The notes: generated from the letters alone by a model not told the origin. 56,916 bases of DNA from a virus (IMGVR_UViG_3300006754_000019:1-56916); one strand, 5' to 3'. Shown: positions 6,462 to 54,673, counted from the first letter of the stretch. Made by a program: numbers and translations.

Positions 6462-7136
6462 TTAGATACTCTCCTGTTTCCAAAGTTCAGGGCTTATAAA
6501 TTCCTTTACCCCTTGTTCTCTCCATTCCAACCCTGCCCATTTAATAACTGATTCTATTTCCGTATAATTACCATCTATCATTTCCTGTGGGAACACCTCC
6601 ATGATGTCCAATCTATCTTCAAACATCTCCCTAAATCTTTTTACATGTTCCCTTACCCAAGACAACCAACCCTCCCTGTCTTTATACTTAGACATGAATC
6701 CTGTCTTTAAGCAAGATTGAATTACATCCTCACTTCTCCTTCTTACTATAATCCACTTAGCATCAGGGAAAGCCCTATCCCAAAGAGTCCACATCAAACA
6801 CATCTTCGCACCCTTGTACATTAGCGTATCTCTATCTTCTTTGTATCCCTGATACTTCATCTCCTTTAGAAACTTTTCCCTCCATTCACTACTATCTATT
6901 TCTTCAAAGTCTCTTATCTTAGGCAATGGTTTCTGTCCCATTGGGTCTGCCCCCACAGCTATCAATAAAGGTTTAACCATACCCTGAACGATAGCCCTGT
7001 TCTCAAACATACCCTTCTTGTTGTATGGGGTAGCTTGTGCTAACTTTCCTCCCCAAGCCCCACAAAGATGAACAACTCCTGCTGTCATACTTGTTCCTGA
7101 TCTAGCACACCCTGTAATGAATATGGGACTTTTCAC
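6462..7136 (-). CDS. PAPS-dependent sulfotransferase
   Basis: IFITGCARSGTS 5'-phosphosulfate-binding loop; FPDAKWIIVRR...DV..S 3'-phosphate-binding region. Confidence 0.85.
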   Translation of the reverse strand: MKSPIFITGCARSGTSMTAGVVHLCGAWGGKLAQATPYNKKGMFENRAIVQGMVKPLLIAVGADPMGQKPLPKIRDFEEIDSSEWREKFLKEMKYQGYKEDRDTLMYKGAKMCLMWTLWDRAFPDAKWIIVRRRSEDVIQSCLKTGFMSKYKDREGWLSWVREHVKRFREMFEDRLDIMEVFPQEMIDGNYTEIESVIKWAGLEWREQGVKEFISPELWKQESI

Positions 7137-8758
7137 TTTGTAAGCTCCTTCACTTTTCTAGTTAGATATTTAGGGAAAGCATCTTTAGTATTAACCACTA
7201 AGTAAGATTTATTTCTTACTTCTGGAGGACAAGAGTTCCACATAAAATCTTTATTGTAATAATCATTCCAAATAATAACTGTTTTCTGTTTCAATACTGT
7301 TGACATAATAGTAAGCCCTGATGGATACCCTACCACACACTTACTGCCCTTAATCAATCCGAATAGTTCCTCCACACTTGTCTTCCCTCTTAGATCAATC
7401 GAAAAAGGAATGTTATTTATAACATCTGTTTGGTCTTCAAACTCACTATCCCAAACAGCCCCAGCAAATACAGGAACACTATCTGTCTCTTGGCATATCA
7501 TGTTTACAGAATTAATCATCTGTTGTTTAGTAAACTCTCCCTGCCAATGACCATAGTGACCATGAAAGAGGAAGTAGAAAACGATATATTTGCCATACTT
7601 ATTTTTACATGCTTTCTCATAGTTCATTTGATCTAAAGACTCGAACATGTCTGGAATCCAATTACAATCTAACTCTCCATCCACTTCATCTAAAGAGAAT
7701 CCATTACTTAATTGACCATTGTAGGATAAGAAATAATCACACCCACATATATCTTCAAAGACAGTCCTCCCTGCATCCCTATAAGCTTCTAACCAAATCT
7801 CCTTTGGATAGATGGATGTATTAAAAGAGATTTCTGTAGACTTTAAGAAAGGAAACAACTTCAAGAATGGAAAAGCTCTTTTATGTCCCTCCCGCTTCCT
7901 ATCTTTATTACAAGCCACATATACATCTGGAATCTCTCCTTCCTTCCCTATAGTCTCCATGAAGGATTGCATCTTTACAACAGACCAATAAGCATCTCCC
8001 ATGCCAGGAGGTACTAATATCTTTGTCCTCTTTTGCTTTGGTTTGGTACAATAGAAAACTATCTTAGACAGAACAGGCTTCTTATAACAATCAACTTTGA
8101 ATCCTGCTTTAGATAATAAGTCTATCATCTGGGTTTCATTAAGAAACCAAATGTGTTCCTCTTTCCAGTGATGCTTACCCTCTGGACAAAAGAAATTGGG
8201 AACATCTATAATACATTCCCCTCCCTGCTTAGTTACTCTGAACATCTCCTTCACAAAACTAACTGGGTCTTGTATATGCTCCAATACATCATGGCAAGTA
8301 ACCTTGTCAAACATATCTACAGGAAAGTGAACATCTTCAAATCTTTTCTTATATGTAAACTCATCACTCTTTTTATAATGATAGTCAGTTATCTCACACC
8401 CATAAGCCTCAGCCCCTATAGCCCTGCAAGCTTCAATGAATGCTCCACTCCCTGACCCTACATCTAATACTACATCTTTTTCTTTTATCTTATGAGATAT
8501 TACTCTTTGCATTCCTAAATATAAATCATGTTCATAATCTTTAGCTTTATACTCAGGATTAGAAGGAGGGTATTCTTTATAATCAATACTATTTATTCCC
8601 TGCCTAACTATCCCACACTTACATTTATAGAAGTACACTCCATTACTGGTAGTTTCAATAGTCTTACCTTCTGGAGTAACTTCATAGAGTTGTCGATCAT
8701 ATTTATTAAAATCAACACTCCCACATATACATTTTAACTTCTTTGGGTTGGTTATCAT
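7133..8758 (-). CDS. Class I SAM methyltransferase fused to a GT9 (heptosyltransferase-like) glycosyltransferase
   Basis: VLDVGSGSG and HDVLEHIQDP (MTase); PPGMGDAYW and DLRGKTSVEELFGLIKGSKCVVG..SG (GT9). Confidence 0.85.
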   Translation of the reverse strand: MITNPKKLKCICGSVDFNKYDRQLYEVTPEGKTIETTSNGVYFYKCKCGIVRQGINSIDYKEYPPSNPEYKAKDYEHDLYLGMQRVISHKIKEKDVVLDVGSGSGAFIEACRAIGAEAYGCEITDYHYKKSDEFTYKKRFEDVHFPVDMFDKVTCHDVLEHIQDPVSFVKEMFRVTKQGGECIIDVPNFFCPEGKHHWKEEHIWFLNETQMIDLLSKAGFKVDCYKKPVLSKIVFYCTKPKQKRTKILVPPGMGDAYWSVVKMQSFMETIGKEGEIPDVYVACNKDRKREGHKRAFPFLKLFPFLKSTEISFNTSIYPKEIWLEAYRDAGRTVFEDICGCDYFLSYNGQLSNGFSLDEVDGELDCNWIPDMFESLDQMNYEKACKNKYGKYIVFYFLFHGHYGHWQGEFTKQQMINSVNMICQETDSVPVFAGAVWDSEFEDQTDVINNIPFSIDLRGKTSVEELFGLIKGSKCVVGYPSGLTIMSTVLKQKTVIIWNDYYNKDFMWNSCPPEVRNKSYLVVNTKDAFPKYLTRKVKELTK

Positions 8759-8780
8759 AAGTCCAAGTCCCCTTTTGTAT

Positions 8781-9485
8781 TCAATATACCCTCCTACAGA
8801 TATCTACTTCTGTCACTCTCATAGTCGCATAATCCTTACATATATGATATATAAAATTAGAAGCATCTCTTGGTTTCATTAACTTATCGTAGTCCCCTCT
8901 GTGACTTGCCATATCAGTTTGTAAAGCACCTAGATATATACTAACCACTTTTACCCCTGCCCTTGTAGCATCAAACTGTATAGAATCTGCAAAGCCTTTT
9001 AGACCATGTTTAGCTGCACAATATATAAATTCTCCATCAGCCCCAACCTTACCAGCAATGGAGTTTATGAATACTATTAACCCCTCCCTACGTTTTACTT
9101 GTTGCCATAGTTCTTTTGTTAATACCATCTGGGAAGTTAGATTAGTATTTATCATATTAGCGAAGTCCCCTGACTCACATTCCTCTATTCCCATACTCTC
9201 ATGAATACCAGCATTGAGAATTAGAACATCTAGTCCTCCCATTTCTTCTGCTTTCTCTTTTAATTTATAAGCTGTTCTTATATCATTAATATCTCCCTTA
9301 ACAGTTTCACATTCTACATGATAATCTTTTGTATGTTCCCTAGTGAAGGAGAAGTTCTTACTTACACAAGGGAGATCATTCTGCTTACTATGTAAAATGA
9401 GATTATATTCGTGTTCAGCAAAAGCTTGTGCTAATCTTTTACCCAACCCTCTTGATGCCCCTGTTATTAATACGTTCTTTTTCAT
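8781..9485 (-). CDS. Short-chain dehydrogenase/reductase (SDR)
   Basis: TGASRGLG, LNAG, YCAAK motifs; start moved to MKKNVLITG at 9485. Confidence 0.92.
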   Translation of the reverse strand: MKKNVLITGASRGLGKRLAQAFAEHEYNLILHSKQNDLPCVSKNFSFTREHTKDYHVECETVKGDINDIRTAYKLKEKAEEMGGLDVLILNAGIHESMGIEECESGDFANMINTNLTSQMVLTKELWQQVKRREGLIVFINSIAGKVGADGEFIYCAAKHGLKGFADSIQFDATRAGVKVVSIYLGALQTDMASHRGDYDKLMKPRDASNFIYHICKDYATMRVTEVDICRRVY

Positions 9486-9988
9486 AGTATAGGCAACCCA
9501 TCTTTCTTTAAGCAAATGATAGCTGGCTCTCCCATCAAGTAAGCATCCAACATTGCCTTCTCTGTCTCTTCCTGACTTCTAGGAAAGTAACCATATATAT
9601 TTTTAAATAAAGATACCAACCCTTCAGCATTAAGTGGTCTGTGAGTCGCACCATGCGTTGGATAATCACTATTCCCTATTAACATTACTGGCAACTTCTG
9701 TTCATCTATGTCGATCTTTATCTGCTCAAATGGTCTTTCAATTAAGAAGGGAGTAATGGAGTATACAATAGGTCTTAATCCCTCCATAGCCATTCCAGCA
9801 CTTATACTAATCATACTCTGTTCTGTCAATCCAAGATTGAAATATCTATTTGGAAACCTCTCCTTATATTCATTCATCTCTTGCTCTACGTCACCAGTAA
9901 GGAGGACAATGTTCTTATCCTTCTCAGCCAACTTGACTATAGTTTTCCCGAATGCTCTTCTCATATTCTTTATGTCCTCTAAGCTCAC
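9482..9988 (-). CDS. Transketolase-like protein, stand-alone pyrimidine-binding domain
   Basis: FPNRYFNLGLTEQSMI, RPFEQIK, G.TH motifs; no third (C-terminal) domain. Confidence 0.88.
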   Translation of the reverse strand: MSLEDIKNMRRAFGKTIVKLAEKDKNIVLLTGDVEQEMNEYKERFPNRYFNLGLTEQSMISISAGMAMEGLRPIVYSITPFLIERPFEQIKIDIDEQKLPVMLIGNSDYPTHGATHRPLNAEGLVSLFKNIYGYFPRSQEETEKAMLDAYLMGEPAIICLKKDGLPIL

Positions 9989-38150: not shown

Positions 38151-39638
38151 ATGAACGCTAAGATAGAAAAGAAGATTGTCACAGGGATGATAGTCAGTGA
38201 GGAATTCCTTAAAGGGATAGTACAAATCTACAGACCCCTCCAAGTTCCCTTTGCCAAAGAAGTAGCTGGTTGGTGCTTAGAACACTTCAACGAATACAGG
38301 AAACCCCCTCTAAAGCATATAGAAGATATCTTCATAGCCCACAAGGAGGAGCTATCTGAAGAACAAGAAGATTTAATAGGGGACTTCCTACAACACATCT
38401 CAGAAGAATACGAAGAAGCAGAGACTTTCAATGTACAGTATATTTTAGATACGGCAGAGAAGTACTTCAGGACTATAACCCTCCAAGAACTGAACAAGAG
38501 GCTATCTGCCACCATCACCAAAGGAAATATCAACAAGGGGGAGGCTTTAATAAAAGACTTTGAAAGAGTTGTCCGACCACAGACCAAAGGAGTGAATCCC
38601 TTTGACGTAGAGGTGATACAGAATGCCTTTACAGAAGATCACACCAACAACCTATTCAGGTTTCCCGATGTACTGGGGAACATAGTAGGAAACTTTGAAA
38701 GGGAACATCTTGTGTCCTTTGTGGGAGTGTCCAGTATAGGAAAGTCGTGGTGGCTTATGTGGATGGCTATGTTAGGGTTGTCAGAAGGATACAGGGTTGT
38801 GTATGTGAGCCTAGAAATGTCTGAGAAGCAAATGGTAAAGAGGATACATCAATTTATTAACGCATGTCCTACGAAGGAGTGTGACGTAATTTTACTTCCA
38901 GTTTTTGATTGTACGAAGAATCAGAAAGACATTTGTGATAGAAAGGAAAGGAGGAGCAAATGTGGTATCCAAGATGAAGATGGAAATGACATGGACTTTC
39001 ACCAAGCTAAGAAAGGAGGGTATAAGCCCTGTACCGAATGCACTGAAGACTACAAGCAGGGTCTATGGCATAAGGTAGTAAAGAGGAAAGTGTTGTCTGA
39101 ACAGATGGTGTTGGAGAAGAACAAGCTTGTCTACGGTAGTTTAATAAAGAAGAATAGATTTAAGTTCATCAAGTATCCCTCTAAAGGGGCTACGATGTCT
39201 GAGCTACGTTCCCATTTATTGAACATAGAACAGTATGAGGGATTCATCCCTGATATTATAGTTACCGACATGGCTGATAAGTTTTCAGCAGAGAATACCA
39301 GACAGGATACCAGACACCAGATAGATGAAGTCTGGAGGGCACACAAGTCCCTAGCACAGGAAAGAAAATGTTTGGTAGTAACGGCAAGTCAATCTAACAC
39401 GATGAGGACAGAAAAGGATATACGACAAGGAGATTGGGCTGAATCAGTGGGTAAGATTCAAGAGTCGGACATATCTTTTGCCCTCAATCAGAAACCCGAA
39501 GAAAAGTCCCAAGGGCTGATGAGGGTATCTGTCCTAAAGCAAAGGGATGATGACTTTGACTTGACTACAGAAGTAAATGTATTGATGTCATACAAAATCG
39601 GCAGACCGTATTTGAAGTCTTGTATGAGGGGAAAATAA
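38151..39638 (+). CDS. dnaB: Replicative DnaB-like helicase
   Basis: G.SSIGKS, SLEM, IIVTD..D, TASQ, K.RD motifs; Cys-rich insertion. Confidence 0.85.
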   Translation: MNAKIEKKIVTGMIVSEEFLKGIVQIYRPLQVPFAKEVAGWCLEHFNEYRKPPLKHIEDIFIAHKEELSEEQEDLIGDFLQHISEEYEEAETFNVQYILDTAEKYFRTITLQELNKRLSATITKGNINKGEALIKDFERVVRPQTKGVNPFDVEVIQNAFTEDHTNNLFRFPDVLGNIVGNFEREHLVSFVGVSSIGKSWWLMWMAMLGLSEGYRVVYVSLEMSEKQMVKRIHQFINACPTKECDVILLPVFDCTKNQKDICDRKERRSKCGIQDEDGNDMDFHQAKKGGYKPCTECTEDYKQGLWHKVVKRKVLSEQMVLEKNKLVYGSLIKKNRFKFIKYPSKGATMSELRSHLLNIEQYEGFIPDIIVTDMADKFSAENTRQDTRHQIDEVWRAHKSLAQERKCLVVTASQSNTMRTEKDIRQGDWAESVGKIQESDISFALNQKPEEKSQGLMRVSVLKQRDDDFDLTTEVNVLMSYKIGRPYLKSCMRGK

Positions 39639-39808: not shown

Positions 39809-40363
39809 ATGACTAAAGAAGAATCGAAGTTAAAACAAGAAGATTTAGAATTTGCAGTAGATGAATTAAATGAAGTACTGTTTGGAGGGGAAGAAGAAAT
39901 TGGCAAGGCTTTTGCTGATGAAATGGTTGACGAGTTGAAGGAGGCTTCCGAAGAAATAGACAAAGCTGATTCGTTTTCACAAAGAACAGCTGATGTGTTA
40001 GAGGTCTTAGGTGTAAAGGTTGACTTCAAGATAAAGCCTGAAAAGAAAAAGAAGACTAAGGCTAAGAAGGAGTCTAAACCAGCTAAGAAGGAGTCTAAAC
40101 CAACTAAGAAAGAAAAGAAGGCTAAGAAGGAGAAGAAAGCCAAGAAGGAAAAAGGCAAGACTAGGGTAAAGGCTATGCATGAAGTCCTGAAGAAGTGCAA
40201 GAAGGGCAAGTCCTACGAAGACATAGTGGAGGAAGTCCATGATGCATTAGATGGTACTTGTGCTATCAACAGTGTCAAGGGGTCATTGAGGTTTGCCCTG
40301 TCAGTGCTTGTACAGTTTGACGTAATAGAAGTGAAGGACAGGAAGTACCGCTTTATAGGTTAA
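39809..40363 (+). CDS. Acidic/Lys-rich DNA-binding-like protein
   Basis: Acidic N-terminus, AKKESKP repeats, wHTH-like C-terminus. Confidence 0.6.
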   Translation: MTKEESKLKQEDLEFAVDELNEVLFGGEEEIGKAFADEMVDELKEASEEIDKADSFSQRTADVLEVLGVKVDFKIKPEKKKKTKAKKESKPAKKESKPTKKEKKAKKEKKAKKEKGKTRVKAMHEVLKKCKKGKSYEDIVEEVHDALDGTCAINSVKGSLRFALSVLVQFDVIEVKDRKYRFIG

Positions 40364-40364
40364 T

Positions 40365-41105
40365 ATGAAAAAGTTAATATACAAAGAGGGATTAGTGGTC
40401 AGGGAGCCGATTGGGATAACCAACGGTTCTCTGACACTTACCAAATGCACAGTACAACACGCTAGGAAGGGAGTGGTAAAGAATCACTACTCTAGGAAAG
40501 TATCTAGGAACAGTTTTTTATCTTTCGCTGTCAACAAGACAGAGGGATATCTTCAATTAGGCTACGGCATGAATCCAACAAAGAAACATACCATCTCAAA
40601 ATATATTACATTAGACAACCATTGTGAATTTGATCGCATGTGGTTGTCAGACTCCCTACCTAAGTTCAGCGAAAGCCAAGTGATTGCCCTCCTATTGAGT
40701 TACATAAAGCAGATATATCCCAACATACATTTTATAATTACCTATGCTGATGAGGGTGTAGGAAATACTGGTGTGATCTACAAAGCCACCAATGCAATAT
40801 CCCTCGGTAAGCACAAGACGAAGTTCTACATCCTCCCTAATGGGGAGAGAACACATGCCGTATCTTTATGGCATAAGTATAAGACAAGCACAAAGGAATT
40901 TCTGGACAGCAAGGGCATCAAGTCACAGGACACATATCAACATAGATTCCTCTATATATTAAATAAACGATTGCGGAAGAAGTATCAAGAGGAGATACGC
41001 CAGCTTCCAGCTGGAGGGGCAGGTTCGATTCCTGCCTTCCGCTCCAAACATTCCCCTCCTAAGGGAGGGGGTGGTGGCAGATCAAGGTCTGGGAGGGTAA
41101 AATGA
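40365..41105 (+). CDS. Mom-family (GNAT-fold) DNA adenine modification enzyme 1
   Basis: NHYS, EFDRMW......SES, ITYAD...G.TG.IYKATN, HRFLY motifs. Confidence 0.82.
   Translation: MKKLIYKEGLVVREPIGITNGSLTLTKCTVQHARKGVVKNHYSRKVSRNSFLSFAVNKTEGYLQLGYGMNPTKKHTISKYITLDNHCEFDRMWLSDSLPKFSESQVIALLLSYIKQIYPNIHFIITYADEGVGNTGVIYKATNAISLGKHKTKFYILPNGERTHAVSLWHKYKTSTKEFLDSKGIKSQDTYQHRFLYILNKRLRKKYQEEIRQLPAGGAGSIPAFRSKHSPPKGGGGGRSRSGRVK
40973..41046 (+). tRNA. Non-canonical tRNA-Gly(UCC)-like element inside the Mom-like gene
   Basis: GCGGAAG/CTTCCGC acceptor stem + T + CCA; GTAT/ATAC D stem; CCAGC-TTCCA-GCTGG anticodon arm; GCAGG-TTCGATT-CCTGC T arm. Confidence 0.8.
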
Positions 41106-42076
41106 ACATACTAACATTTTCACCAAGTACTAGGAAGGTTTGGACAGATAAGAGGGCAGTCAATCCAGCGTACTTCCTTATGGCTACATTGGTAGCGAAC
41201 CTATCGGAGAAGTATAATGTATATACTATAGATGAATCCTTCAACCCTGTACAGAAGATGAAGAAGTACAACGGAGAACATATTGATTGTGTTATCTCCA
41301 TCGGGGCTATCTATACTCTATCAGATACTAAGAAGAAGTTGAAGTTTGACCCGAACTACAGTAGACATAAGAGGATATTCAAGATAGCAAAGATAACTAA
41401 TGAAGTGTTTGACAAGTACGACCCTCTACATATCAACCTATGTGTGGATGTTAGTAAGTGGTCACAGGAACTAACGGAGATGTTTGGAAAAGAACCAGAT
41501 ACATTTGTTACTGAACAGGAAATGAAATGGCAGACCTTCCTCTATCTATACTGCCATAGACGTACTATATGTAATAACAAAGGGGATGAGTTCTTCTATG
41601 CAGGAGGGGCTAAGAATAGGGTTGCTAGGTTCTTAGAACTGACAAAGGGAATAGACAAGCTGAAGACGATAGCTGGTGGAGGATGGAAAGATGTATTGTC
41701 TAAGGAAGATCGTTATTGGATGCTTGGTTACATTCCGTTCTCCCAATGTCTTGCTATGTCTAGATTTGCAAAGTGGAGTATTGTATTCCAAACTGAACAA
41801 GGCAACATAGAGAATTGGATAACAGGGAGGTTGTTTATGAATCTAGCTACTAAAATGATAGGTTTTGTAGATAAGGAATATGACAAAGAGGGAATGTATG
41901 TTAGGAGGGATTCTCTTTTAAGAGTGTCTGATTCAGATGAAATCAATGCTAAAATAAGGATGTTTAAATATGGTGAATTAATATTAGAGCAAGAAAAGAT
42001 GATTAAATCTCACTGGTTAGAGTGGGAGACCTATACTAAACCTTTTGAAAAGAAGATAAGAGGACTACTGAAATGA
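41102..42076 (+). CDS. T4 beta-glucosyltransferase-like GT-B enzyme
   Basis: YAGG..NR, G.IP, NWITGR, VDKEYD match by eye the T4 BGT motifs YGG..R, GKIP, NFITLR, IDEEFD. Confidence 0.72.
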   Translation: MNILTFSPSTRKVWTDKRAVNPAYFLMATLVANLSEKYNVYTIDESFNPVQKMKKYNGEHIDCVISIGAIYTLSDTKKKLKFDPNYSRHKRIFKIAKITNEVFDKYDPLHINLCVDVSKWSQELTEMFGKEPDTFVTEQEMKWQTFLYLYCHRRTICNNKGDEFFYAGGAKNRVARFLELTKGIDKLKTIAGGGWKDVLSKEDRYWMLGYIPFSQCLAMSRFAKWSIVFQTEQGNIENWITGRLFMNLATKMIGFVDKEYDKEGMYVRRDSLLRVSDSDEINAKIRMFKYGELILEQEKMIKSHWLEWETYTKPFEKKIRGLLK

Positions 42077-42822
42077 AACCAACCTTTATCATAGCAGGAG
42101 GGGCAAGATGTGGAACTACTTTCTTTGCAGACTGTTTGAACCAACATCCAGACATACACCTCCCTACCCCATTCATACCAGAACCTAAAGTATTCACTGA
42201 CCCATTGATGGAGGATGAAGAATACTTAGACCATTATGAATTTATATATGAGCAAAATCCTTTCATAACCCCTGACACAGTGAATGGGGAGAAGACAGTC
42301 AACTATTTAGAAAATCCACTTATACCCTTTACTATTAGGAGGGTGCTGCCTGATGTTAAGCTGTTCTTCTGTTTACGTAATCCAGTAGACAGGGCTTATT
42401 CTGGATGGTGTTGGAGTACTATGAATGGTCATGAAACAAATACATTCAAGGAGGCTATTCATTTAGAACTGACTACAGATAGATGGAAGACAATACCTAG
42501 AGGGATGCATTCACAACCATTCAACTATCTACATAGAAGTATGTATGATGTAATGTTAGAACCTTACTTTAAAGCCTTTAGGAGGGAACAGATACATATT
42601 ATTATTTTTGAAGAACTGATACAGAATATTCATACTACAATTAATAATGTGTATAATATACTGAGAGTCCATGAGCAACATGTGAAGTCTAACTTTAAGA
42701 ATGAAACAGAGGGATTCCCCCCTATGGCTAATGGGTGGAGGCAGTTTTTAAGAGGTTACTTTTATAACAGTATTCAGAATCTAAGTGAATACGTCAACGT
42801 AGATATCTGGGAGGGGAAATGA
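42073..42822 (+). CDS. PAPS-dependent sulfotransferase (Sulfotransfer_1 type)
   Basis: FIIAGGARCGTT, QHPDI, EP..F, GEKT.NYL, LRNPVDRAYS motifs. Confidence 0.9.
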   Translation: MKPTFIIAGGARCGTTFFADCLNQHPDIHLPTPFIPEPKVFTDPLMEDEEYLDHYEFIYEQNPFITPDTVNGEKTVNYLENPLIPFTIRRVLPDVKLFFCLRNPVDRAYSGWCWSTMNGHETNTFKEAIHLELTTDRWKTIPRGMHSQPFNYLHRSMYDVMLEPYFKAFRREQIHIIIFEELIQNIHTTINNVYNILRVHEQHVKSNFKNETEGFPPMANGWRQFLRGYFYNSIQNLSEYVNVDIWEGK

Positions 42823-42885
42823 AAGGGGAATGTTATAAATGCAAAACCCCTGATGTAAAAGTTTGGAATACTTTAAGGAGAAAGC

Positions 42886-43608
42886 ATGGAAATAAAAAAT
42901 ATAAACAACAGGGAGGTTAAAGATTGGTTGTTAGATAAACACTATGCTAAAAGAAGATGTAGTATCTCCTATAGCTATGGATTAATTCATGAAGACAACA
43001 TTATAGGAATAGTAACATATGGAATCCCTCCTTCACCACAAGTAGGGAGAGGGTTTCTAGGGGAAAGGCATAGAACTAAAGTAATAGAGTTGAACAGACT
43101 TTGTATTAATGATGATGCACCTAAAAATTCAGCTTCATTCTTAGTGGGAGGAACTTTAAAAAAACTAATTGATTGGGCTGTTGTGTCCTATGCTGATGGA
43201 AAGATGGGACATGTTGGATATATATACCAAGCAACAAACTTTATATACTGTGGGAGTGCTACATCACATGATTGTGAATATTTAATAGATGGGAAATGGA
43301 TACACCCTAAGACCCTGACTACTAAAGGAATAACATCCCCTTCACAATGGGCAAAAGAGAACAACATACAAAAGAGGACTCCTTCACCTAAACATAGATA
43401 CATTTATTTTGTTAACAAGAAACTGAGGAAGTATTTAAAATATGATATACTTCCATACCCTAAAGGAGAAACAAAAAGATATGAGTCAAAGACAATAAAA
43501 AGAAGGAGGAAAGAATGGGGTTTATTTGACAAAGAACAATTACAATTAAAACATAAAAGGAGGAAGAATGAACAGAATAGAATTACTAAGGGCAGTAGAG
43601 AAGATTAA
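42886..43608 (+). CDS. Mom-family (GNAT-fold) DNA modification enzyme 2
   Basis: KHYAKR, ELNRL, KNSASFLV, VSYAD...GHVGYIYQATNF.Y.G, KHRYIY motifs. Confidence 0.85.
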   Translation: MEIKNINNREVKDWLLDKHYAKRRCSISYSYGLIHEDNIIGIVTYGIPPSPQVGRGFLGERHRTKVIELNRLCINDDAPKNSASFLVGGTLKKLIDWAVVSYADGKMGHVGYIYQATNFIYCGSATSHDCEYLIDGKWIHPKTLTTKGITSPSQWAKENNIQKRTPSPKHRYIYFVNKKLRKYLKYDILPYPKGETKRYESKTIKRRRKEWGLFDKEQLQLKHKRRKNEQNRITKGSRED

Positions 43609-44578
43609 ACCAGCAATGAGTAGTGGATTGGCAGAACAAGACAATCTAATTATGTTTGAACAATATCACGAAGGAGGGAAAGTCAAGTCATTCAACAACG
43701 AGATAATGATGATTAGCCCGATGGTAGAGGGACTAAAGTTTGATGGTGCTGTACCAGCTAATGAAATGTTGACCCTACTACAGAAGATGTATGATAAGAA
43801 TGTCAAGGTTACAGAGAAGGGAGATGAACTAAGGATATCAGGAAAGACCACAAAGGCTGTATTGAAAAAGGCTGAACTAGAAATGCCTGAAGTAACCCTC
43901 CCTAACAAGTTTGCTTCTCTACCTAGTAACTTTACCGAGGGTTTAAGGCATTGTAGATTTACTGTAGCTGAATCTGGTAACGTACTACACAATATATTAA
44001 TAGAGGGGGATAAGATAATATCCAGTGACAACTATAGGATAACAGAATATACATTGGAGAAAGATACGTTCAAAAAGTCACAACTTATCCCTGCACCTAT
44101 TTGTATGACGTTGATCTCCTTTACCCCTACCTCCTTTGCATCTAATAAGAGTTGGTTGTTCTTTAAGAATGAAGATGGGGCTATCTTATGTATACGGAGG
44201 GTAGAAGAACAGCGAAAGTTCCCTGACATACAAGCTATACTAAAACAGAAGTTCAAGGGCACGAAGGTTACCCTCCCTGAAGACTTAAAACAAGCATTGG
44301 AAAGGGCAAAGATACTATCAGCAGAGGACTTGGTGACAGGGAATAGTACTGTAGATGTTACCATAGAAAAGGACAAGGTTCTATGTCAAGGAGAATGTGC
44401 TATGGGGAGGATAGACGAAGAAATAAAGGTAGAATATTCAGGAAAGAAAATCTCCTTTAGTATCGTGCCTGATTTCCTCTATCAGATATTAAACAATACT
44501 GATAAGATGACTGTGGGAGAAGTAAGTCTTAAATTTAAAACTAAAAACTTTCAACATATAGTACAACTAATATCATGA
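43568..44578 (+). CDS. dnaN: DNA polymerase sliding clamp (beta-like)
   Basis: 336 aa, three-domain pattern; SSDNYRI (cf. ATDGHRL), FPD, L..ALER motifs. Confidence 0.75.
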   Translation: MNRIELLRAVEKIKPAMSSGLAEQDNLIMFEQYHEGGKVKSFNNEIMMISPMVEGLKFDGAVPANEMLTLLQKMYDKNVKVTEKGDELRISGKTTKAVLKKAELEMPEVTLPNKFASLPSNFTEGLRHCRFTVAESGNVLHNILIEGDKIISSDNYRITEYTLEKDTFKKSQLIPAPICMTLISFTPTSFASNKSWLFFKNEDGAILCIRRVEEQRKFPDIQAILKQKFKGTKVTLPEDLKQALERAKILSAEDLVTGNSTVDVTIEKDKVLCQGECAMGRIDEEIKVEYSGKKISFSIVPDFLYQILNNTDKMTVGEVSLKFKTKNFQHIVQLIS

Positions 44579-45756
44579 AGGGATTCTTTAAAAAAGAAAA
44601 TCTAAAGAAGAGTGCCTCTAACTGTTCAAAATGTAAACTACATAAGGAATGTAATACTCCTTACATAGGGGTGGCTGGAGAAGGCAAGAAGTCAATTCTT
44701 ATCATAAACGAATCGCCCGAGAAAGATAAGAAGGGTAAGTTACTACAGGGGGAGTCTATAGAAATACTAAGGGAGGCGTTTAACGAATATGGTATTGATA
44801 TAGATGTTGATTGTTGGGTAACTAATGCCGTATCCTGTCGCCCTCCTAAGGGCAGAGCACCGCACAAGCGAGAAGTTAAGATGTGTAATCCTAGGGTACA
44901 GAAGGTAGTAGAGGAGTTAAAACCTAAGATGATATTCTTATTGGGGAGTTCAGCTTTAGATAGTTTCCTGATGGATAAGATCAAAGGTTCTAGTGGAGGG
45001 ATAGATAAGTGGAGGGGTTTTGTAATACCTGACCAAGTAACAAAGGCTTGGATTATCCCTCTTTATCATCCTACATTTGTTAGGGATTTTAAAAAGAAAA
45101 AGAAGATTGTACCTAAGATATTTGAACAGGACATAGGGAGGGGTCTTAGGAAAATCAAAGAACGCTGTCATGTATTCAATCATAAGGTAGAGGTACTTAG
45201 CCAAGACAATGCTAGACACATGCTGAAGACCCTATTGGACAACCCACCACCAAAGATGTTGGCTTTTGATTATGAAACCACTGGAATTAAACCGTACAAG
45301 GAAGGACATGAGATAATATGTGTGGGAGTGTGTTGTTCAGATATAGCTTATGTATTCCTATTGGATGATAAGAGGGTATTAAGTTATTGGAAGAAGATTT
45401 TAAGGACTAGGAGTATTCCCAAGACAGCACAGAATATTAAATTTGAACATGTATGGAGTAGAGTGATTCTAGGGACTATAGTTAAAGGATGGAAGCATGA
45501 TACTATGCAAGCCTCCCACATCATAGACAATCGTAAAGGGATTACTGGATTGAAGTTTCAGTCTTACATTAGATTTGGTCAGGGAGATTATTCTAGTCAT
45601 CTAGATAAATACATCAAGACTACTGGGGAGGAAGAATTTAATACCATTAGAGATGCCCCTATGAATGAAGTGTATAAATACTGTGCTATGGATGCGATCT
45701 TAGAATATAAATTAGCTATACTACAAATGGAAGGGGAGGGAATATTTAATGAATAA
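44575..45756 (+). CDS. Family-4 UDG-like domain fused to 3'-5' exonuclease (N-terminal part of split family A polymerase)
   Basis: CSKCKLH, TNAVSCRPP, YHP (UDG4); AFDYETTG, QNIKFE, DTM, YCAMDA (Exo I-III). Confidence 0.88.
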   Translation: MKGFFKKENLKKSASNCSKCKLHKECNTPYIGVAGEGKKSILIINESPEKDKKGKLLQGESIEILREAFNEYGIDIDVDCWVTNAVSCRPPKGRAPHKREVKMCNPRVQKVVEELKPKMIFLLGSSALDSFLMDKIKGSSGGIDKWRGFVIPDQVTKAWIIPLYHPTFVRDFKKKKKIVPKIFEQDIGRGLRKIKERCHVFNHKVEVLSQDNARHMLKTLLDNPPPKMLAFDYETTGIKPYKEGHEIICVGVCCSDIAYVFLLDDKRVLSYWKKILRTRSIPKTAQNIKFEHVWSRVILGTIVKGWKHDTMQASHIIDNRKGITGLKFQSYIRFGQGDYSSHLDKYIKTTGEEEFNTIRDAPMNEVYKYCAMDAILEYKLAILQMEGEGIFNE

Positions 45757-47062
45757 GAACGCTTACAAACTACTGCATGAAGGAACACTGGCTTTCGCAG
45801 ACATGGAGTACAACGGCATCAAGGTAGATGTTAGGTACTGTAGGAGACAGAAGAAGAATATAAACCAACAGATAGAGTTGTTAGAATTGGAACTAGACAG
45901 GACTGAAGAAATGAAGGTATGGAGGAAAAGGTACAAGGATGATTTTAACCTAGATTCCACAGACCAGCTGAAGAAAGTTCTATTTACTGATTTAAAGATT
46001 ACCCCTCCAGCTTATACTGACAAAGGCAATCCCTCTGTTAATAAAGATAATCTGAATCTTATTGATTCACCTATAGTAGAACCGTTAATTAAATTAAGAC
46101 AGCTGAAAAAACTGAATAATACTTATCTGAAGAACATCATGGAGGAAACAGTTAATGGGTATATTCATCCCTCTTTTAATCTTCACACTGTGCAGACATT
46201 TAGAAGTTCCTGTGATAGACCTAATTTTCAAAACATGCCTATTCGTGACCCATTCATGGGAAAGATTATCAGGACAGCTTTCATACCTAGGGAAAATAGT
46301 ATCATAGGAGGACTAGACTATGCAGGGATAGAGTTGTCAATGGCTGGATGTAATAGCAAAGACCCTCTATTGATTAAGGATTATATTACAATACACAAGA
46401 CTCAAGCAGCTAGATGTTTTGCATTGAAGGAGAAGCAAGTAACAAAGGATATCAGGTACTACGGAAAGAATGGATTTGTGTTCCCACAACTCTATGGGAG
46501 TTGGAATGTGCCGATAGCAGAAAACCTATTGAGGATAACTAAAGGGATGCAGACCGTAGATAACTTAGACCTATATGAACACCTAGAGGCTAAAGGAATC
46601 TCCCACCCAGAGATATTTCAAGACCATATAGAAAATGTAGAAACTAGATTTTGGGAAACTTATTCAGTACATAAGAAATGGCAGGAGGGTTGGATATCTA
46701 ACTACTACAAAAAGGGGTACATAGAGATGTTGACAGGGTTTAGATGTAAAGGCATATTGTCAAAGAACCAACTATTTAATTATGCTAATCAGGGAATAGC
46801 TTTCCATTGCCTCCTATGGAGTATAATACAAATGAATAAGTGGCTAAAGAAGTATAAGATGAAAAGTAAATTGATTTGGAACATCCACGATGACATGGGG
46901 CTTGATATTCACAACACAGAAAAAGAGGACGTACTGCAAAAAGCAAAGGAGATAATGTGTATAGAGATTAAGAAAGCATGGAAGTGGATTATTACTCCGT
47001 TGGAGATAGAGGCTGAATTTTCTAACAAGAATTGGTATGAAAAGGAGAAAGTGAAGATATGA
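45749..47062 (+). CDS. polA: Family A DNA polymerase, polymerase domain
   Basis: PNFQNMP, DYAGIEL (motif A), R...K...F...YG (motif B), IHDD (motif C). Confidence 0.92.
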   Translation: MNKNAYKLLHEGTLAFADMEYNGIKVDVRYCRRQKKNINQQIELLELELDRTEEMKVWRKRYKDDFNLDSTDQLKKVLFTDLKITPPAYTDKGNPSVNKDNLNLIDSPIVEPLIKLRQLKKLNNTYLKNIMEETVNGYIHPSFNLHTVQTFRSSCDRPNFQNMPIRDPFMGKIIRTAFIPRENSIIGGLDYAGIELSMAGCNSKDPLLIKDYITIHKTQAARCFALKEKQVTKDIRYYGKNGFVFPQLYGSWNVPIAENLLRITKGMQTVDNLDLYEHLEAKGISHPEIFQDHIENVETRFWETYSVHKKWQEGWISNYYKKGYIEMLTGFRCKGILSKNQLFNYANQGIAFHCLLWSIIQMNKWLKKYKMKSKLIWNIHDDMGLDIHNTEKEDVLQKAKEIMCIEIKKAWKWIITPLEIEAEFSNKNWYEKEKVKI

Positions 47063-51083: not shown

Positions 51084-51568
51084 TCTATATTGGAATTGAC
51101 AATGGGGTGACTGGGAGTATAGGAATAATAAATGATAGAGAAGCTTACTTCTTTAAAACTCCATGCTTCAAAGAACAAAACTATACTAAAGTAAAAGGAA
51201 ACATCTCTAGGATAGATCATCATAGATTAGGAGAATTATTAACAGATCGTATATATCAGTATGCTAAAGTATATCTAGAAAGACCAATGGTAAATCCTAT
51301 GAGATTCAAAGCAACTGTTAGTGCATTGAGGGCTTTGGAATCTACTTTGATAGTGGTGGAGACTTTAAAAATTCCTCATGAATATGTTGACTCAAAGGAA
51401 TGGCAGAAGGAGTTGTTACCTAAAGGAGTGAAGGGATCACCTGAGTTGAAGAAAGCCTCCCTTGATATAGGATGTAGATTGTTCCCTAAGTTGAAAGAAG
51501 AAATAGTGAATCATGGAGATGCAGATGGATTGTTAATAGCTGAATATCTAAGAAGGCAGAATAGATGA
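51080..51568 (+). CDS. RuvC-like Holliday junction resolvase
   Basis: IGIDNGVTG, YLE, WQK, DADGLLIA. Confidence 0.8.
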   Translation: MIYIGIDNGVTGSIGIINDREAYFFKTPCFKEQNYTKVKGNISRIDHHRLGELLTDRIYQYAKVYLERPMVNPMRFKATVSALRALESTLIVVETLKIPHEYVDSKEWQKELLPKGVKGSPELKKASLDIGCRLFPKLKEEIVNHGDADGLLIAEYLRRQNR

Positions 51569-52461
51569 TTAACTCCCTGACTATACAAAACTTTCAGAGT
51601 CATAAGAAAACTGAACTGGTCTTTGATAACGGTATTAATATTATCATTGGTCAATCAGATTCAGGGAAGTCTGCCATTCTTAGAGCCTTGAACTGGGTGA
51701 TTAATAATAAACCTAGTGGAGAAGCTTTCAGAAGTAGTTGGGGAGGGGAGACTGAAGTAAACATATGCTTAGATGATAATCAAATACACAGAATCAAAGG
51801 AAAAGAAAACTCTTATCTAATGGATGTAGCTGATTTCAAATCATTTGGACAAGATGTACCAGAAGAAATAAAACAACAAATAAACTTCTCCCCTTTAAAC
51901 ATGGCTGGGCAATTTGATTCTCCTTTCCTCCTAGCTATGTCAGGGGGGGAGGTTGCTAGATACCTGAACAAGATAGTTCATCTTGACGTAATTGATAAAT
52001 CACTTTCTAATATAGGGAGGGTATTGACAAAAGAAAAGACTGATCTGAAGTACAAAGAGGAAGAATATAAAAATGCTAAGGAGAAGGAGAAGGAATTTGA
52101 TTGGTTAGATGAAGCAGAGGGCTGTCTGGTAAAATTGGAATTGTTTGAGAATAATTTAAGACAAAGGAATATGGATTGTTCTAGATTAGCTTTTCAATTA
52201 AGCTGTATAAAAGAAGCATATGAAAAGCTAGATGAACTCCCTGATCTGAGTGATTATGAAATACAAGTCACAGATTTAATATATAGTCAGAAAAAGATTC
52301 ATTATAAGAAAGAGAAGATAGATAAGTTTAATAATTGTGTAGAAAATATATTGGTCAAGGAGGGACAAATTAGAATAATAGAAAAAGACTTAGGGAGTTG
52401 GGAAGCCCAATTTGAAGCAACGATGCCCCAACAATGTCCTTTGTGTGGGAGGGGAGAGTGA
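51565..52461 (+). CDS. SbcC/Rad50 N-terminal half (Walker A to zinc hook)
   Basis: NFQSH, GQSDSGKS, coiled coil, ends at CPLCG. Confidence 0.85.
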   Translation: MINSLTIQNFQSHKKTELVFDNGINIIIGQSDSGKSAILRALNWVINNKPSGEAFRSSWGGETEVNICLDDNQIHRIKGKENSYLMDVADFKSFGQDVPEEIKQQINFSPLNMAGQFDSPFLLAMSGGEVARYLNKIVHLDVIDKSLSNIGRVLTKEKTDLKYKEEEYKNAKEKEKEFDWLDEAEGCLVKLELFENNLRQRNMDCSRLAFQLSCIKEAYEKLDELPDLSDYEIQVTDLIYSQKKIHYKKEKIDKFNNCVENILVKEGQIRIIEKDLGSWEAQFEATMPQQCPLCGRGE

Positions 52462-53393
52462 TGAAAAGAAAAAATAGAAAGAAAAGTAGCGTAACTGCAA
52501 TTTTGTCTTCTGATTGGCACATTAGAGGTGACAGACCAGTTTGCAGAACTGATGACTATATGGAGGCACAAAGAAAGAAGATTACATTCATATTAAATCT
52601 TGCCAAAGATAATTCTTGCCCTATCCTAGTTGCTGGAGACTTCGGACACAAACCTATGTGGGGAGATAGACTACTTAATTACTTTATAGATATATTAAAT
52701 GACTTTCAAGATGTAGTAATATATGTAGTAGTAGGACAACATGACCTCCCTAACCACAGACTTGATAAGTGGAAAGAGGCAGGGTTGGGAGTATTGGACA
52801 AACAATATGGAAAAGATTTTGAAGTGATTGTGAAACCTACCAGAGCTAATGACTTTATTATCTTTCCTTTTCATTATTCAAATAATATAATAAAGTTGGA
52901 ACAAGAAACAACAGATAGAACTACAGCCCTCCTGCACACAATGGTAATTAAATCACAGAAGGAGAAGCTATGGCATGACCAAGTAGCTCACTCTGCTAAG
53001 TGGTACTTGAGGAAGTTCCCTTGCTATGATTTAATTGTATCAGGGGACAATCACCAAAGTTTTGCAATAGAGTATGAGGGGAGATGGTTGGTGAATGCTG
53101 GAAGCTTGATGAGGATGACAGCAAACCAAATTGAACACAAACCCTCTGTCTATCTATGGTATGCTGAGGACAATTCAATAGAAAGGATATATCTACCGAT
53201 AGAAGAGAACGTAGTTAGTAGGCAACATATAGCAGAAGGTCAGCAGAGGAACGAGAGAATAGAAGCATATATAAATAGGTTAAAAGAAACAGAGGAGCTA
53301 GGGCTCAGCTATGAGAGTAATATGAAAGAGTTCTTTAAAACAAATAGGACAAGGAGAAAAATAATGTTGAAGGTATGGGAGAGTATGAAATGA
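52461..53393 (+). CDS. SbcD/Mre11-like nuclease
   Basis: SDWH, AGD, GQHD, GDNH, NAGS motifs. Confidence 0.88.
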   Translation: MKRKNRKKSSVTAILSSDWHIRGDRPVCRTDDYMEAQRKKITFILNLAKDNSCPILVAGDFGHKPMWGDRLLNYFIDILNDFQDVVIYVVVGQHDLPNHRLDKWKEAGLGVLDKQYGKDFEVIVKPTRANDFIIFPFHYSNNIIKLEQETTDRTTALLHTMVIKSQKEKLWHDQVAHSAKWYLRKFPCYDLIVSGDNHQSFAIEYEGRWLVNAGSLMRMTANQIEHKPSVYLWYAEDNSIERIYLPIEENVVSRQHIAEGQQRNERIEAYINRLKETEELGLSYESNMKEFFKTNRTRRKIMLKVWESMK

Positions 53394-54028: not shown

Positions 54029-54673
54029 ATGAGTCTGAAGGAGATTAGATCAACAATAGAAAGAAGTAAAGGACAGAGAGACTTAATAGAGTCTACTCTT
54101 GCATTCTTAGAGGGAGAAACTACTTCCTTGACGAAGGAGATTAAGTGTTCTGAAAAGGCACAGGTAATTATCCAAAAGGTGGCACAGGACACACAAAGCC
54201 AATTAGAATATCATATCTCCGACATAGTAACAATGGCTTTAGATACTGTCTTTGACGAGCCTTATAAGTTCAAGGTAAACTTTGTTCTCAAAAGAAACAA
54301 GACTGAATGTGAATTGCTATTTGATAGGGATGGAGAAGAAATCAACCCACTGATAGGTAGCGGAGGAGGTGTGATAGACGTAGCCTCCTTCGCCCTACGG
54401 ATAGCCCTATGGACATTGCAGACTCCCAAGGGTAGGAACACAATTATATTAGACGAGCCATTCAAGTTCTTATCCAAAGACCTACTCCCAAGAGCCTGTA
54501 CTCTTCTTCAGGAACTTAGAAAGAAATTAAATCTTCAATTCATAATTGTAACCCACCTTGACGAACTGGTGGGGTGTGCTGATAAAGTTTTTAATGTAAA
54601 ACTTAAAGAAGGTATCTCACATGTCAAAAATTACTATGTATCACTTTCAAACTCCATGCCGTCTGGGTCGTAA
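54029..54673 (+). CDS. SbcC/Rad50 C-terminal half (signature, Walker B)
   Basis: GSGGG signature, IILDEPF, IIVTH. Confidence 0.88.
   Translation: MSLKEIRSTIERSKGQRDLIESTLAFLEGETTSLTKEIKCSEKAQVIIQKVAQDTQSQLEYHISDIVTMALDTVFDEPYKFKVNFVLKRNKTECELLFDRDGEEINPLIGSGGGVIDVASFALRIALWTLQTPKGRNTIILDEPFKFLSKDLLPRACTLLQELRKKLNLQFIIVTHLDELVGCADKVFNVKLKEGISHVKNYYVSLSNSMPSGS

Follow-up and report, generated by a model that had tools for sequence, protein, structure and literature searches.

A candidate Mom-centred DNA hypermodification cassette with a beta-glucosyltransferase relative, a sulfotransferase and an embedded glycine tRNA-like gene in an uncultured marine phage

The sequence analysed here, referred to as the window, is a whole virus record of IMG/VR (IMGVR_UViG_3300006754_000019), linear, 56,916 bases long, with a completeness estimate of 75%, and its source is an uncultured marine phage. 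Within it we describe a cassette of four open reading frames (ORFs), encoding two homologues of the DNA-modifying enzyme Mom, a sugar transferase related to the T4 beta-glucosyltransferase (BGT) and a sulfotransferase dependent on 3'-phosphoadenosine 5'-phosphosulfate (PAPS), which together with a glycine transfer RNA (tRNA)-like gene embedded in the first of them may form a pathway for DNA hypermodification. The minus strand of the window carries a structural module at approximately 1-27 kb (terminase, portal, head proteins, tape measure) and the plus strand a replication module at 27-54 kb (primase, helicases, DnaB, clamp, split family A polymerase, clamp loader, RecA, resolvase and SbcCD-like nuclease), to which the cassette belongs. 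A first-pass annotation of the same DNA had placed four closely packed genes between the helicase region and the clamp and polymerase genes, and this layout was found to be exact, as all four ORFs are on the plus strand and together fill positions 40365-43608. What had been missed was the tRNA-Gly-like gene at 40973-41046. The features of the cassette are the following.

40365-41105, plus strand, 246 amino acids (aa): Mom-like A (Mom-A), a homologue of the GNAT-fold adenine N6 aminoacyl-transferase
40973-41046, plus strand, within the 3' end of the Mom-A frame: tRNA-Gly-like gene, anticodon UCC, encoded CCA
41102-42076, plus strand, 324 aa: BGT-family (GT-B) sugar transferase, a distant relative of T4 beta-glucosyltransferase
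42073-42822, plus strand, 249 aa: PAPS-dependent sulfotransferase, carbohydrate O-sulfotransferase-like
42886-43608, plus strand, 240 aa: Mom-like B (Mom-B), a divergent second Mom paralogue

Mom-A is coupled to the transferase, and the transferase to the sulfotransferase, by ATGA stop/start overlaps. Mom-B starts after a gap of 63 bases behind the sulfotransferase and has its own Shine-Dalgarno site, AAGGAG. The cassette is preceded by a DnaB-type helicase gene (38151-39638) and a lysine- and glutamate-rich (K/E-rich) ORF of 184 codons, and followed by the sliding clamp gene (43568-44578), an ORF with uracil-DNA glycosylase and exonuclease domains, and the family A polymerase.

Both Mom-like genes, already called as such in the first-pass annotation, were recognized by PF25680, Mom-A with an E-value of 2.6e-43 (148.5 bits, residues 23-215) and Mom-B with an E-value of 1e-45 (156.4 bits), the cut-off being 27.1 bits. 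They are divergent from each other, with 31% identity across 134 residues. In comparison with the structure of Mu Mom (8bv8) Mom-A was matched at E 2.8e-25 with approximately 31% identity, and Mom-B at E 5.7e-21. According to the main text of the Mu Mom paper (PMC13219725), this enzyme moves glycine from Gly-tRNA(Gly) onto adenine N6 of double-stranded DNA, and the resulting adduct is converted on the base, by rearrangement, to N6-carbamoylmethyl-deoxyadenosine (N6-carbamoylmethyl-dA). The initial description of Mom as an adenine acylator needs updating, since the enzyme is no plain acyl-CoA acylase. The same text gives R111, S124 and R151 as essential and H58, Y59, D149 and Y159 as important for activity; six of these seven active-site residues are kept by Mom-A. 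The equivalents of H58, Y59, R111, S124, D149 and Y159 are identical in both Mom-A and Mom-B in the printed alignments, and each is shared by 118 or more of 122 aligned sequences, comprising Mom-A, Mom-B and 120 homologues of the Mom-A clade. At the position of R151 Mom-A has Gly and Mom-B has Lys, and the column consists of Ser (111), Thr (5), Ala (3), Gly (2) and Lys (1). Loss of R151 was considered as a mark of a transferase-linked Mom subtype and rejected, since the whole clade is without this residue; the change is common across a large marine clade and is therefore no marker of this cassette. Apart from R151, the window differs from Mu in having two Mom paralogues, in placing them in a replication-module operon together with a transferase and a sulfotransferase, and in carrying a tRNA-Gly-like gene inside the Mom-A frame. 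The nearest cultured relatives of Mom-B were Mom-like genes of Bacillus and Staphylococcus phages, with up to 44% identity. Pairs of A-type and B-type Mom genes recur, both types being present in locus L024 and again in locus L025.

The strongest pointer to the function of Mom-A is the tRNA-Gly-like gene at its 3' end. ARAGORN reported tRNA-Gly(UCC) on the plus strand as the sole tRNA of the 56.9-kb record, and the general tRNA model of Rfam (RF00005) gave 41.9 bits (E 1.3e-6; gathering score 29). The element begins at approximately codon 203 of the 246-codon Mom-A frame, the last 44 codons or so of which run through it; the frame stays open across the element and its stop lies in the ATGA overlap with the start of the transferase. 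The acceptor stem reads GCGGAAG/CUUCCGC, with the pairs G1:C72, C2:G71 and G3:C70, and is combined with a U discriminator (U73), with C35 and C36 in the anticodon, and with an encoded CCA. The three pairs together with U73, C35 and C36 are what we take to be the identity set of the bacterial glycyl-tRNA synthetase, and the element is accordingly described as a putative glycine-accepting RNA. Its position at the 3' end of the gene is indirect evidence that Mom-A may be a Gly-tRNA(Gly)-dependent glycyl transferase to adenine N6. No tRNA-like element is attached to Mom-B, and the covariance model described below found no second copy in the window.

The element is not restricted to the window. In L002, L003 and L005, which belong to one related lineage (L001-L005), a tRNA-Gly with the anticodon ACC was found at the homologous place, and the copy in L002 differs from that of the window by paired compensatory changes in the anticodon stem and the T stem. 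A covariance model (R1), built from four other copies (L016, L021, L024, L025) with the window sequence excluded, recovered the window element at 71.1 bits (E 1.5e-15). Among 80 viral loci of the Mom-A clade the model found the element in ten, L013-L016 and L021-L026, where L013 and L014 are duplicates within the L001-L005 lineage, and it found none in 62 more distant loci (L031-L092). In all ten loci the element was located at the 3' end of a Mom domain, whether the gene was of the Mom-A or the Mom-B type, and most copies lie inside an open Mom frame (e.g., L016:3618-3692, L021:3621-3695, and L026:3582-3657). When nine distinct copies were aligned, 98.9% of the base-pair cells were able to pair, compared with 74.5% in shuffled sequences and 40-53% when the partners were slid, in an alignment which was fitted to the model and thus favours pairing; 12 of the 21 base pairs vary on both sides across these copies, a strong covariation by which the cloverleaf is maintained. 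As a rough proxy for its wider occurrence, a C-terminal tail peptide encoded by the 5' half of the element was found in 35 of the 120 Mom-A-clade proteins. Two loci have a particular arrangement. In L024 (3771-5318) a frame of 515 codons contains two Mom-B-type domains flanking a tRNA-Gly-like element with no stop, and a Mom-A-type gene is located just upstream; L025 (2689-4254) has a similar arrangement. The tRNA between the Mom-B-type domains of L024 may serve as punctuation between cistrons.

One could regard the element as an ordinary phage tRNA for GGA/GGG codons, or as a remnant of an integration site, in either case unrelated to the chemistry of Mom. Phages often carry tRNAs, ten of them in L010 among our loci, and the window copy with its UCC anticodon and canonical T loop would fit this; it is nevertheless the only tRNA of the record, and the family to which it belongs lies at a Mom 3' end in ten out of ten loci. 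The anticodon is ACC in three of nine distinct copies, and four of the nine have non-canonical T loops, which gives a hint of relaxed selection for decoding. With model R1 the family scored 63-98 bits, as opposed to 25-35 bits for the ordinary tRNAs of L010. Pairing between positions 32 and 38, which is shared with an ordinary tRNA-Gly of L010 and thus fits an ordinary tRNA, had been considered as a sign of an anticodon loop unfit for decoding, and was rejected on the ground of that same L010 tRNA. As for a remnant of integration, the copies are of full length and no integrase gene is nearby. We consider an ordinary tRNA or integration remnant quite unlikely. In the main text of the Mu Mom paper (PMC13219725) no mention of phage-encoded tRNAs was found, and a tRNA-like element built into Mom genes is undescribed as far as the literature searched shows.

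The identity of the sugar transferase was less evident from direct comparisons. No Pfam family was reached at E <= 0.1 and a direct match to PF09198 was absent, the BGT family of the PHROG collection (phrog_7922) being matched weakly over residues 235-302 (E 1.5e-3). The BGT-like glycosyltransferase named in the first-pass annotation was confirmed by profile searches and by the ESM Atlas. A profile of its own family, searched against all chains of the PDB, ranked T4 BGT (1bgt) first with a collinear match at E 0.014, in which transferase residues 224-301, the C-terminal 78, corresponded to BGT residues 248-323. A profile of 46 sequences including the window protein matched T4 BGT at E 2.1e-26 across its full length, residues 1-341. 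The ESM Atlas model of the transferase, with a mean predicted local distance difference test score (pLDDT) of 0.70, could be aligned across 293 residues, at a template modelling (TM) score of 0.68, with a cluster in which every member carries PF09198. Among the 46 sequences D116, G168 and R173 never vary, and T241 and R243 hardly do (R243 is kept in at least 90%). The columns of D116, R173, T241 and R243 align with D100, R195, T267 and R269 of BGT, and of these we take R195 and R269 to be the arginines that bind uridine diphosphate. D100 is the catalytic residue of BGT according to excerpts of a preprint on phage sugar transferases (10.1101/2023.12.21.572611). As judged from these alignments, which join the two proteins along their length through intermediate sequences, the 324-aa protein is a distant full-length homologue of the T4 beta-glucosyltransferase family with a predicted GT-B fold, and its identity to the intermediate relatives is approximately 17-21%. 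It belongs to a small clade linked to Mom genes, with five proteins at E <= 1e-3 in a search of 5.8 billion proteins and nine at E <= 1e-10 among 1.84 billion representatives. The representative search yielded 82 proteins at E <= 1e-3, mostly of about 300 aa; in a sample of ten of these, four reached the Pfam cut-off for Glyco_trans_1_2 and six matched the BGT PHROG at E <= 2e-4.

The sulfotransferase matched PF00685 at E 1.6e-12 (47.8 bits, cut-off 22) and PF13469 at E 3.9e-11 (44.1 bits, cut-off 27). Its best solved relatives in the PDB included the bacterial sulfotransferase 3rnl (E 3.8e-19), the heparan sulfate 3-O-sulfotransferase 3-OST-1 (E 2e-12) and also heparan sulfate N-sulfotransferases. 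The intact PAPS-binding motifs reported in the first-pass annotation are kept among 121 aligned sequences. The 5' loop reads GGARCGTT, with Arg at the usual position of Lys, in a column of 61 Lys and 59 Arg. The 3' motif LRNPVDRAYS is almost invariant, with Arg102 and Ser110 in 121 of 121, and Glu73 in the sequence GEKT, aligned with the EKT motif of 3-OST-1, is kept in 112. We take these to be the 5'-phosphosulfate loop, the 3'-phosphate motif and the catalytic base, respectively. Because of the conserved motifs and the kinship with heparan sulfate sulfotransferases, the enzyme looks active and of the sugar-type O-sulfotransferases. The nearest functionally characterised solved relatives are sugar O-sulfotransferases, 3rnl being uncharacterised, which fits sulfation of a sugar. 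The heparan sulfate 3-O-sulfotransferases and 3rnl share the PAPS-binding loops and the aligned Glu of EKT with the window enzyme; the latter differs in being phage-encoded, of about 250 aa without any extra domain, and situated among DNA-modification genes.

The linkage of Mom, BGT-like and sulfotransferase genes, for which a neighbourhood survey had been proposed, was found again in a second lineage. In the window the order is Mom-A with the tRNA-like gene, transferase, sulfotransferase and Mom-B. In L001-L005 (with the duplicates L007, L008, L013, and L014) it is Mom with the tRNA-like gene, transferase, sulfotransferase, an N6/N4 methyltransferase, clamp and polymerase, and this is the one other lineage examined at the DNA level in which Mom-A, transferase and sulfotransferase are kept together. 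The transferases of this lineage are 65% identical to that of the window, and that of L006, where G+C is higher, 44%. In L006 the order is a ParB-like ORF, the transferase and a Mom gene cut by the contig end, so the two genes are adjacent despite the distance and the changed gene order. A Mom gene thus lies beside the transferase in all three lineages examined at the DNA level. The complete set is not constant: L006 is without a sulfotransferase, and the second Mom is not a fixed part of the cassette; L002 has an N6/N4 DNA methyltransferase (PF01555, 9766-10686) where the window has Mom-B. The methyltransferase in this slot suggests that the slot simply provides for another modification, again at an exocyclic amine of a base. 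Three further contigs suggest co-location of the genes, judged from the equal size of the contigs hit only: one of 75433 bases for transferase, sulfotransferase and Mom-A homologues, one of 48299 bases for transferase and sulfotransferase, and one of 7140 bases for transferase and a Mom-A homologue. The ORF located 5' of the transferase in L006 (2-568) is ParB-like by eye only, and in the Psychrobacter phage vB_PmaS_Y8A a ParB/sulfiredoxin gene (L012:5355-5966) precedes a Mom-like gene. A paper on a Psychrobacter phage mentioning both Mom and sulfotransferase was set aside as not relevant, since it concerns a PAPS reductase.

The remote relatives of the transferase are in different company. 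In L009-L011 no Mom gene and no sulfotransferase was found within 10 kb; these loci have a family B polymerase, accompanied in L010 by a thymidylate-synthase-like gene and in L009 by genes resembling those for kinases and dUTPases. Thymidylate synthase (PF00303) was matched in two of two records of remote relatives and in neither of the other two, the window and G001, all four records being incomplete. These neighbourhoods bear on a classical pyrimidine route, by which the transferase would add a sugar to a 5-hydroxymethyl- or 5-hydroxy-pyrimidine, the sulfotransferase would decorate that sugar and the Mom proteins would act separately on adenine, with the hydroxylating enzymes either unsequenced or supplied by the host. 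All characterised BGT-type enzymes use a hydroxyl on the base according to excerpts of PMC13326640 and of the preprint (10.1101/2023.12.21.572611), the remote relatives adjoin thymidylate-synthase-like genes, and the window record is 75% complete by estimate. On the other hand, neither the window nor G001 has a match to PF00303, nucleotide-metabolism genes are absent from the replication module (27-54 kb), and it is Mom that flanks the transferase clade in three out of three lineages. We regard the pyrimidine route as improbable. The same contrast distinguishes the transferase from T4 BGT, as its genomic partner is a Mom gene and there is no hydroxymethylase beside it.

A further possibility is that transferase and sulfotransferase act on targets other than DNA, such as a glycan of the host envelope, a protein of the virion, a small molecule or the tRNA-like RNA, and only share an insertion hot spot with Mom. 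The slot occupied by either Mom-B or a methyltransferase is variable, which speaks for this possibility, whereas the transferase and Mom genes overlap by ATGA in two lineages and their adjacency is kept in the distant and reordered L006. About 65% of phage contigs with such transferases have no neighbouring base-modification enzyme according to excerpts of the preprint (10.1101/2023.12.21.572611), and the sulfotransferases of this family are mostly bacterial, their substrates not known. The structural module moreover has a separate island of sugar-tailoring genes, described below. The sole strongly matching solved relative of the transferase is, however, a DNA enzyme, T4 BGT. Non-DNA targets are in our opinion unlikely.

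Taken as a whole, the cassette is tentatively read as a post-replicative DNA hypermodification operon built around Mom, in which a sugar and then a sulfate would be added to the Mom adduct, and to this reading, based on sequence comparisons, we assign a probability of roughly 0.45. The embedded tRNA-Gly-like RNA would be cut from the transcript and charged by the glycyl-tRNA synthetase of the host, as its family and context suggest. Mom-A would use this RNA, or the Gly-tRNA of the host, to place glycine onto adenine N6 in double-stranded phage DNA, and the glycyl adduct would rearrange to N6-carbamoylmethyl-dA as in Mu. The BGT-family GT-B enzyme would then flip the modified base out and glycosylate it with a nucleotide sugar as donor, most likely on the Mom adduct, the terminal carboxamide of which is chemically an asparagine side chain. 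This adduct is the most economical acceptor if one considers how the genes are ordered and translationally coupled, and that the partner has switched from hydroxymethylase to Mom. The sulfotransferase would finally O-sulfate that sugar from PAPS, and Mom-B would modify adenines in other sequence contexts. A Ser- or Thr-tRNA as donor, supplying a hydroxyl for the transferase, was also considered, and the discovery of the glycine tRNA-like gene made this less likely.

Several observations weigh against this operon reading. The first concerns the acceptor. N6-carbamoylmethyl-dA has no hydroxyl that a BGT-type enzyme could use, only a carboxamide. HMW1C-type cytoplasmic N-glycosyltransferases, which have a GT-B fold, place glucose onto the carboxamide of Asn, the same -CH2-CO-NH2 group that N6-carbamoylmethyl-dA displays, and by this analogy glycosylation of a carboxamide would not be without precedent. 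The known DNA sugar transferases all use a hydroxyl according to excerpts of PMC13326640. Secondly, in 76 of the 80 Mom-A-clade loci the surrounding 3 kb contain a lone Mom gene and neither transferase nor sulfotransferase; the full cassette is therefore a rare elaboration, and L006 too is without the sulfotransferase. Thirdly, R151, which is essential in Mu, is replaced in both window Mom proteins. In addition, a hydroxymethylase could lie in a missing part of the genome, since the window record is 75% and that of G001 49% complete; a Tet_JBP search of the record was empty, with its control silent too. Finally, the tRNA-like element could simply serve translation, and its detection by general tools is uneven. 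The Rfam general tRNA model (E <= 1) left four of six related copies unreported (L013, L015, L016, L024) and passed L021 (36.9 bits) and L025 (31.7 bits), and at its default threshold ARAGORN called only L013, L014, L024 and L025. Thresholds of at least 90% were kept in ARAGORN because 80% gave calls in 27 control-region loci against 15 near Mom genes.

The role of the sulfate itself may also be questioned. In thymidine hypermodification, activation of a hydroxyl prior to substitution is established according to excerpts of PMC8989533 and PMC11472151, and the sulfotransferase might in a similar way activate a sugar or base hydroxyl for elimination or substitution, as kinases of 5-hydroxymethyldeoxyuridine do with phosphate, so that the final DNA would be free of sulfate. 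No candidate for the downstream transferase or lyase is present in the cassette, and the nearest solved relatives of the enzyme yield stable sugar sulfates. Sulfate leaving groups occur in natural-product biosynthesis, and the sulfotransferase fold is akin to that of P-loop kinases. We nevertheless find sulfate as a leaving group very improbable. The operon reading in its most complete form, a sulfated glyco-adenine, would comprise a dedicated phage tRNA-Gly-like RNA for which decoding is no longer needed, Mom-A, N- or O-glycosylation by a BGT-type enzyme switched in its acceptor, and O-sulfation from PAPS; that all of this should hold together seems doubtful.

In comparison with the known phage transferase clusters linked to thymidylate synthase (TS) homologues, 5mYOX or TET, as described in excerpts of the preprint (10.1101/2023.12.21.572611) and of PMC13326640, the window shares the proposed post-replicative transfer of a sugar and a GT-A or GT-B enzyme placed beside the gene that makes the acceptor. 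The acceptors in those clusters are hydroxylated pyrimidines, whereas the neighbour in the window is expected to act on adenine N6. The words "sulf", "Mom" and "adenine" do not occur in the main text of the preprint. In the literature searched, no co-mention of "sulfotransferase" with "DNA hypermodification" was found, nor of "Mom-like" with "glycosyltransferase" and "phage".

Sampling of the cassette was extended to sequence collections and sequencing runs. At least half of its sampled words were present in 12 of the 22 runs listed, four of which may be the source. In four further marine runs that were compared the cassette was near-identical, with one base difference across all four, and the contigs from those runs had no joints and no variants of note. 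No RNA dataset with the cassette was among the sequencing runs listed. The cassette DNA and the transferase and sulfotransferase proteins had zero matches among 50,697 phage records, single-protein scans of viral contigs gave no relatives of the cassette proteins, and no relative was found when the transferase alignment was used to scan genome contigs. The family A polymerase of the window has at most 29% identity to any cultured-phage record, and by this measure no cultured phage is close to the window. Sites resembling promoters and terminators occurred no more often than in shuffled sequence.

The K/E-rich ORF preceding the cassette (39809-40363, plus strand, 184 aa), taken from the ORF list, has KKE(S)K repeats and ends one base 5' of Mom-A. 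It reached no family cut-off in domain and PHROG profile searches. L002 has an ORF of 183 aa (6734-7285) at the equivalent place, alike in size, and it is uncertain if the K/E-rich ORF is part of the cassette. Downstream, the family A polymerase (44575-47062) is made up of two overlapping ORFs, one with a uracil-DNA-glycosylase-like domain and a 3'-5' exonuclease and the other with the polymerase domain, and an SbcC/SMC-like ATPase is divided between 51565-52461 and 54029-54673, a metallophosphatase (52434-53393) lying in between. Inside the structural module, a metabolic island on the minus strand (7133-13986) contains the following genes.

Within 7133-13986, minus strand: 541-aa protein with a methyltransferase domain
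8781-9515, minus strand: short-chain dehydrogenase
10845-11588, minus strand: N-terminal subunit of a split transketolase
11582-12331, minus strand: FkbM-type methyltransferase
12324-13349, minus strand: zinc alcohol dehydrogenase

The island looks like one for sugar tailoring and could provide an unusual donor for the transferase, or serve decoration of the virion. Its transketolase and alcohol-dehydrogenase genes were not found in G001, G002 and G003, in a search without a positive control.

Phage hypermodifications known so far comprise sugars on hydroxylated pyrimidines and, separately, carbamoylmethyl on adenine; the operon of the window joins both types of enzymes and adds a sulfotransferase, and the cassette has a realistic chance of new chemistry. 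If the complete pathway is true, it would be the first case of a sulfated base and of a glycosylated purine adduct in DNA, and also the first of a virus that has a donor tRNA of its own for the modification of DNA. Such a pathway would widen natural DNA chemistry and provide new enzymes for site-specific DNA labelling, as well as DNA resistant to many nucleases. The tRNA-Gly-like gene within Mom genes is of importance in its own right. Through the genomes of uncultured phages it supports the 2026 finding on Gly-tRNA(Gly) as set out in the main text of PMC13219725, and it makes directly testable the idea that a virus may bring along the tRNA which serves as donor in a non-translational reaction.

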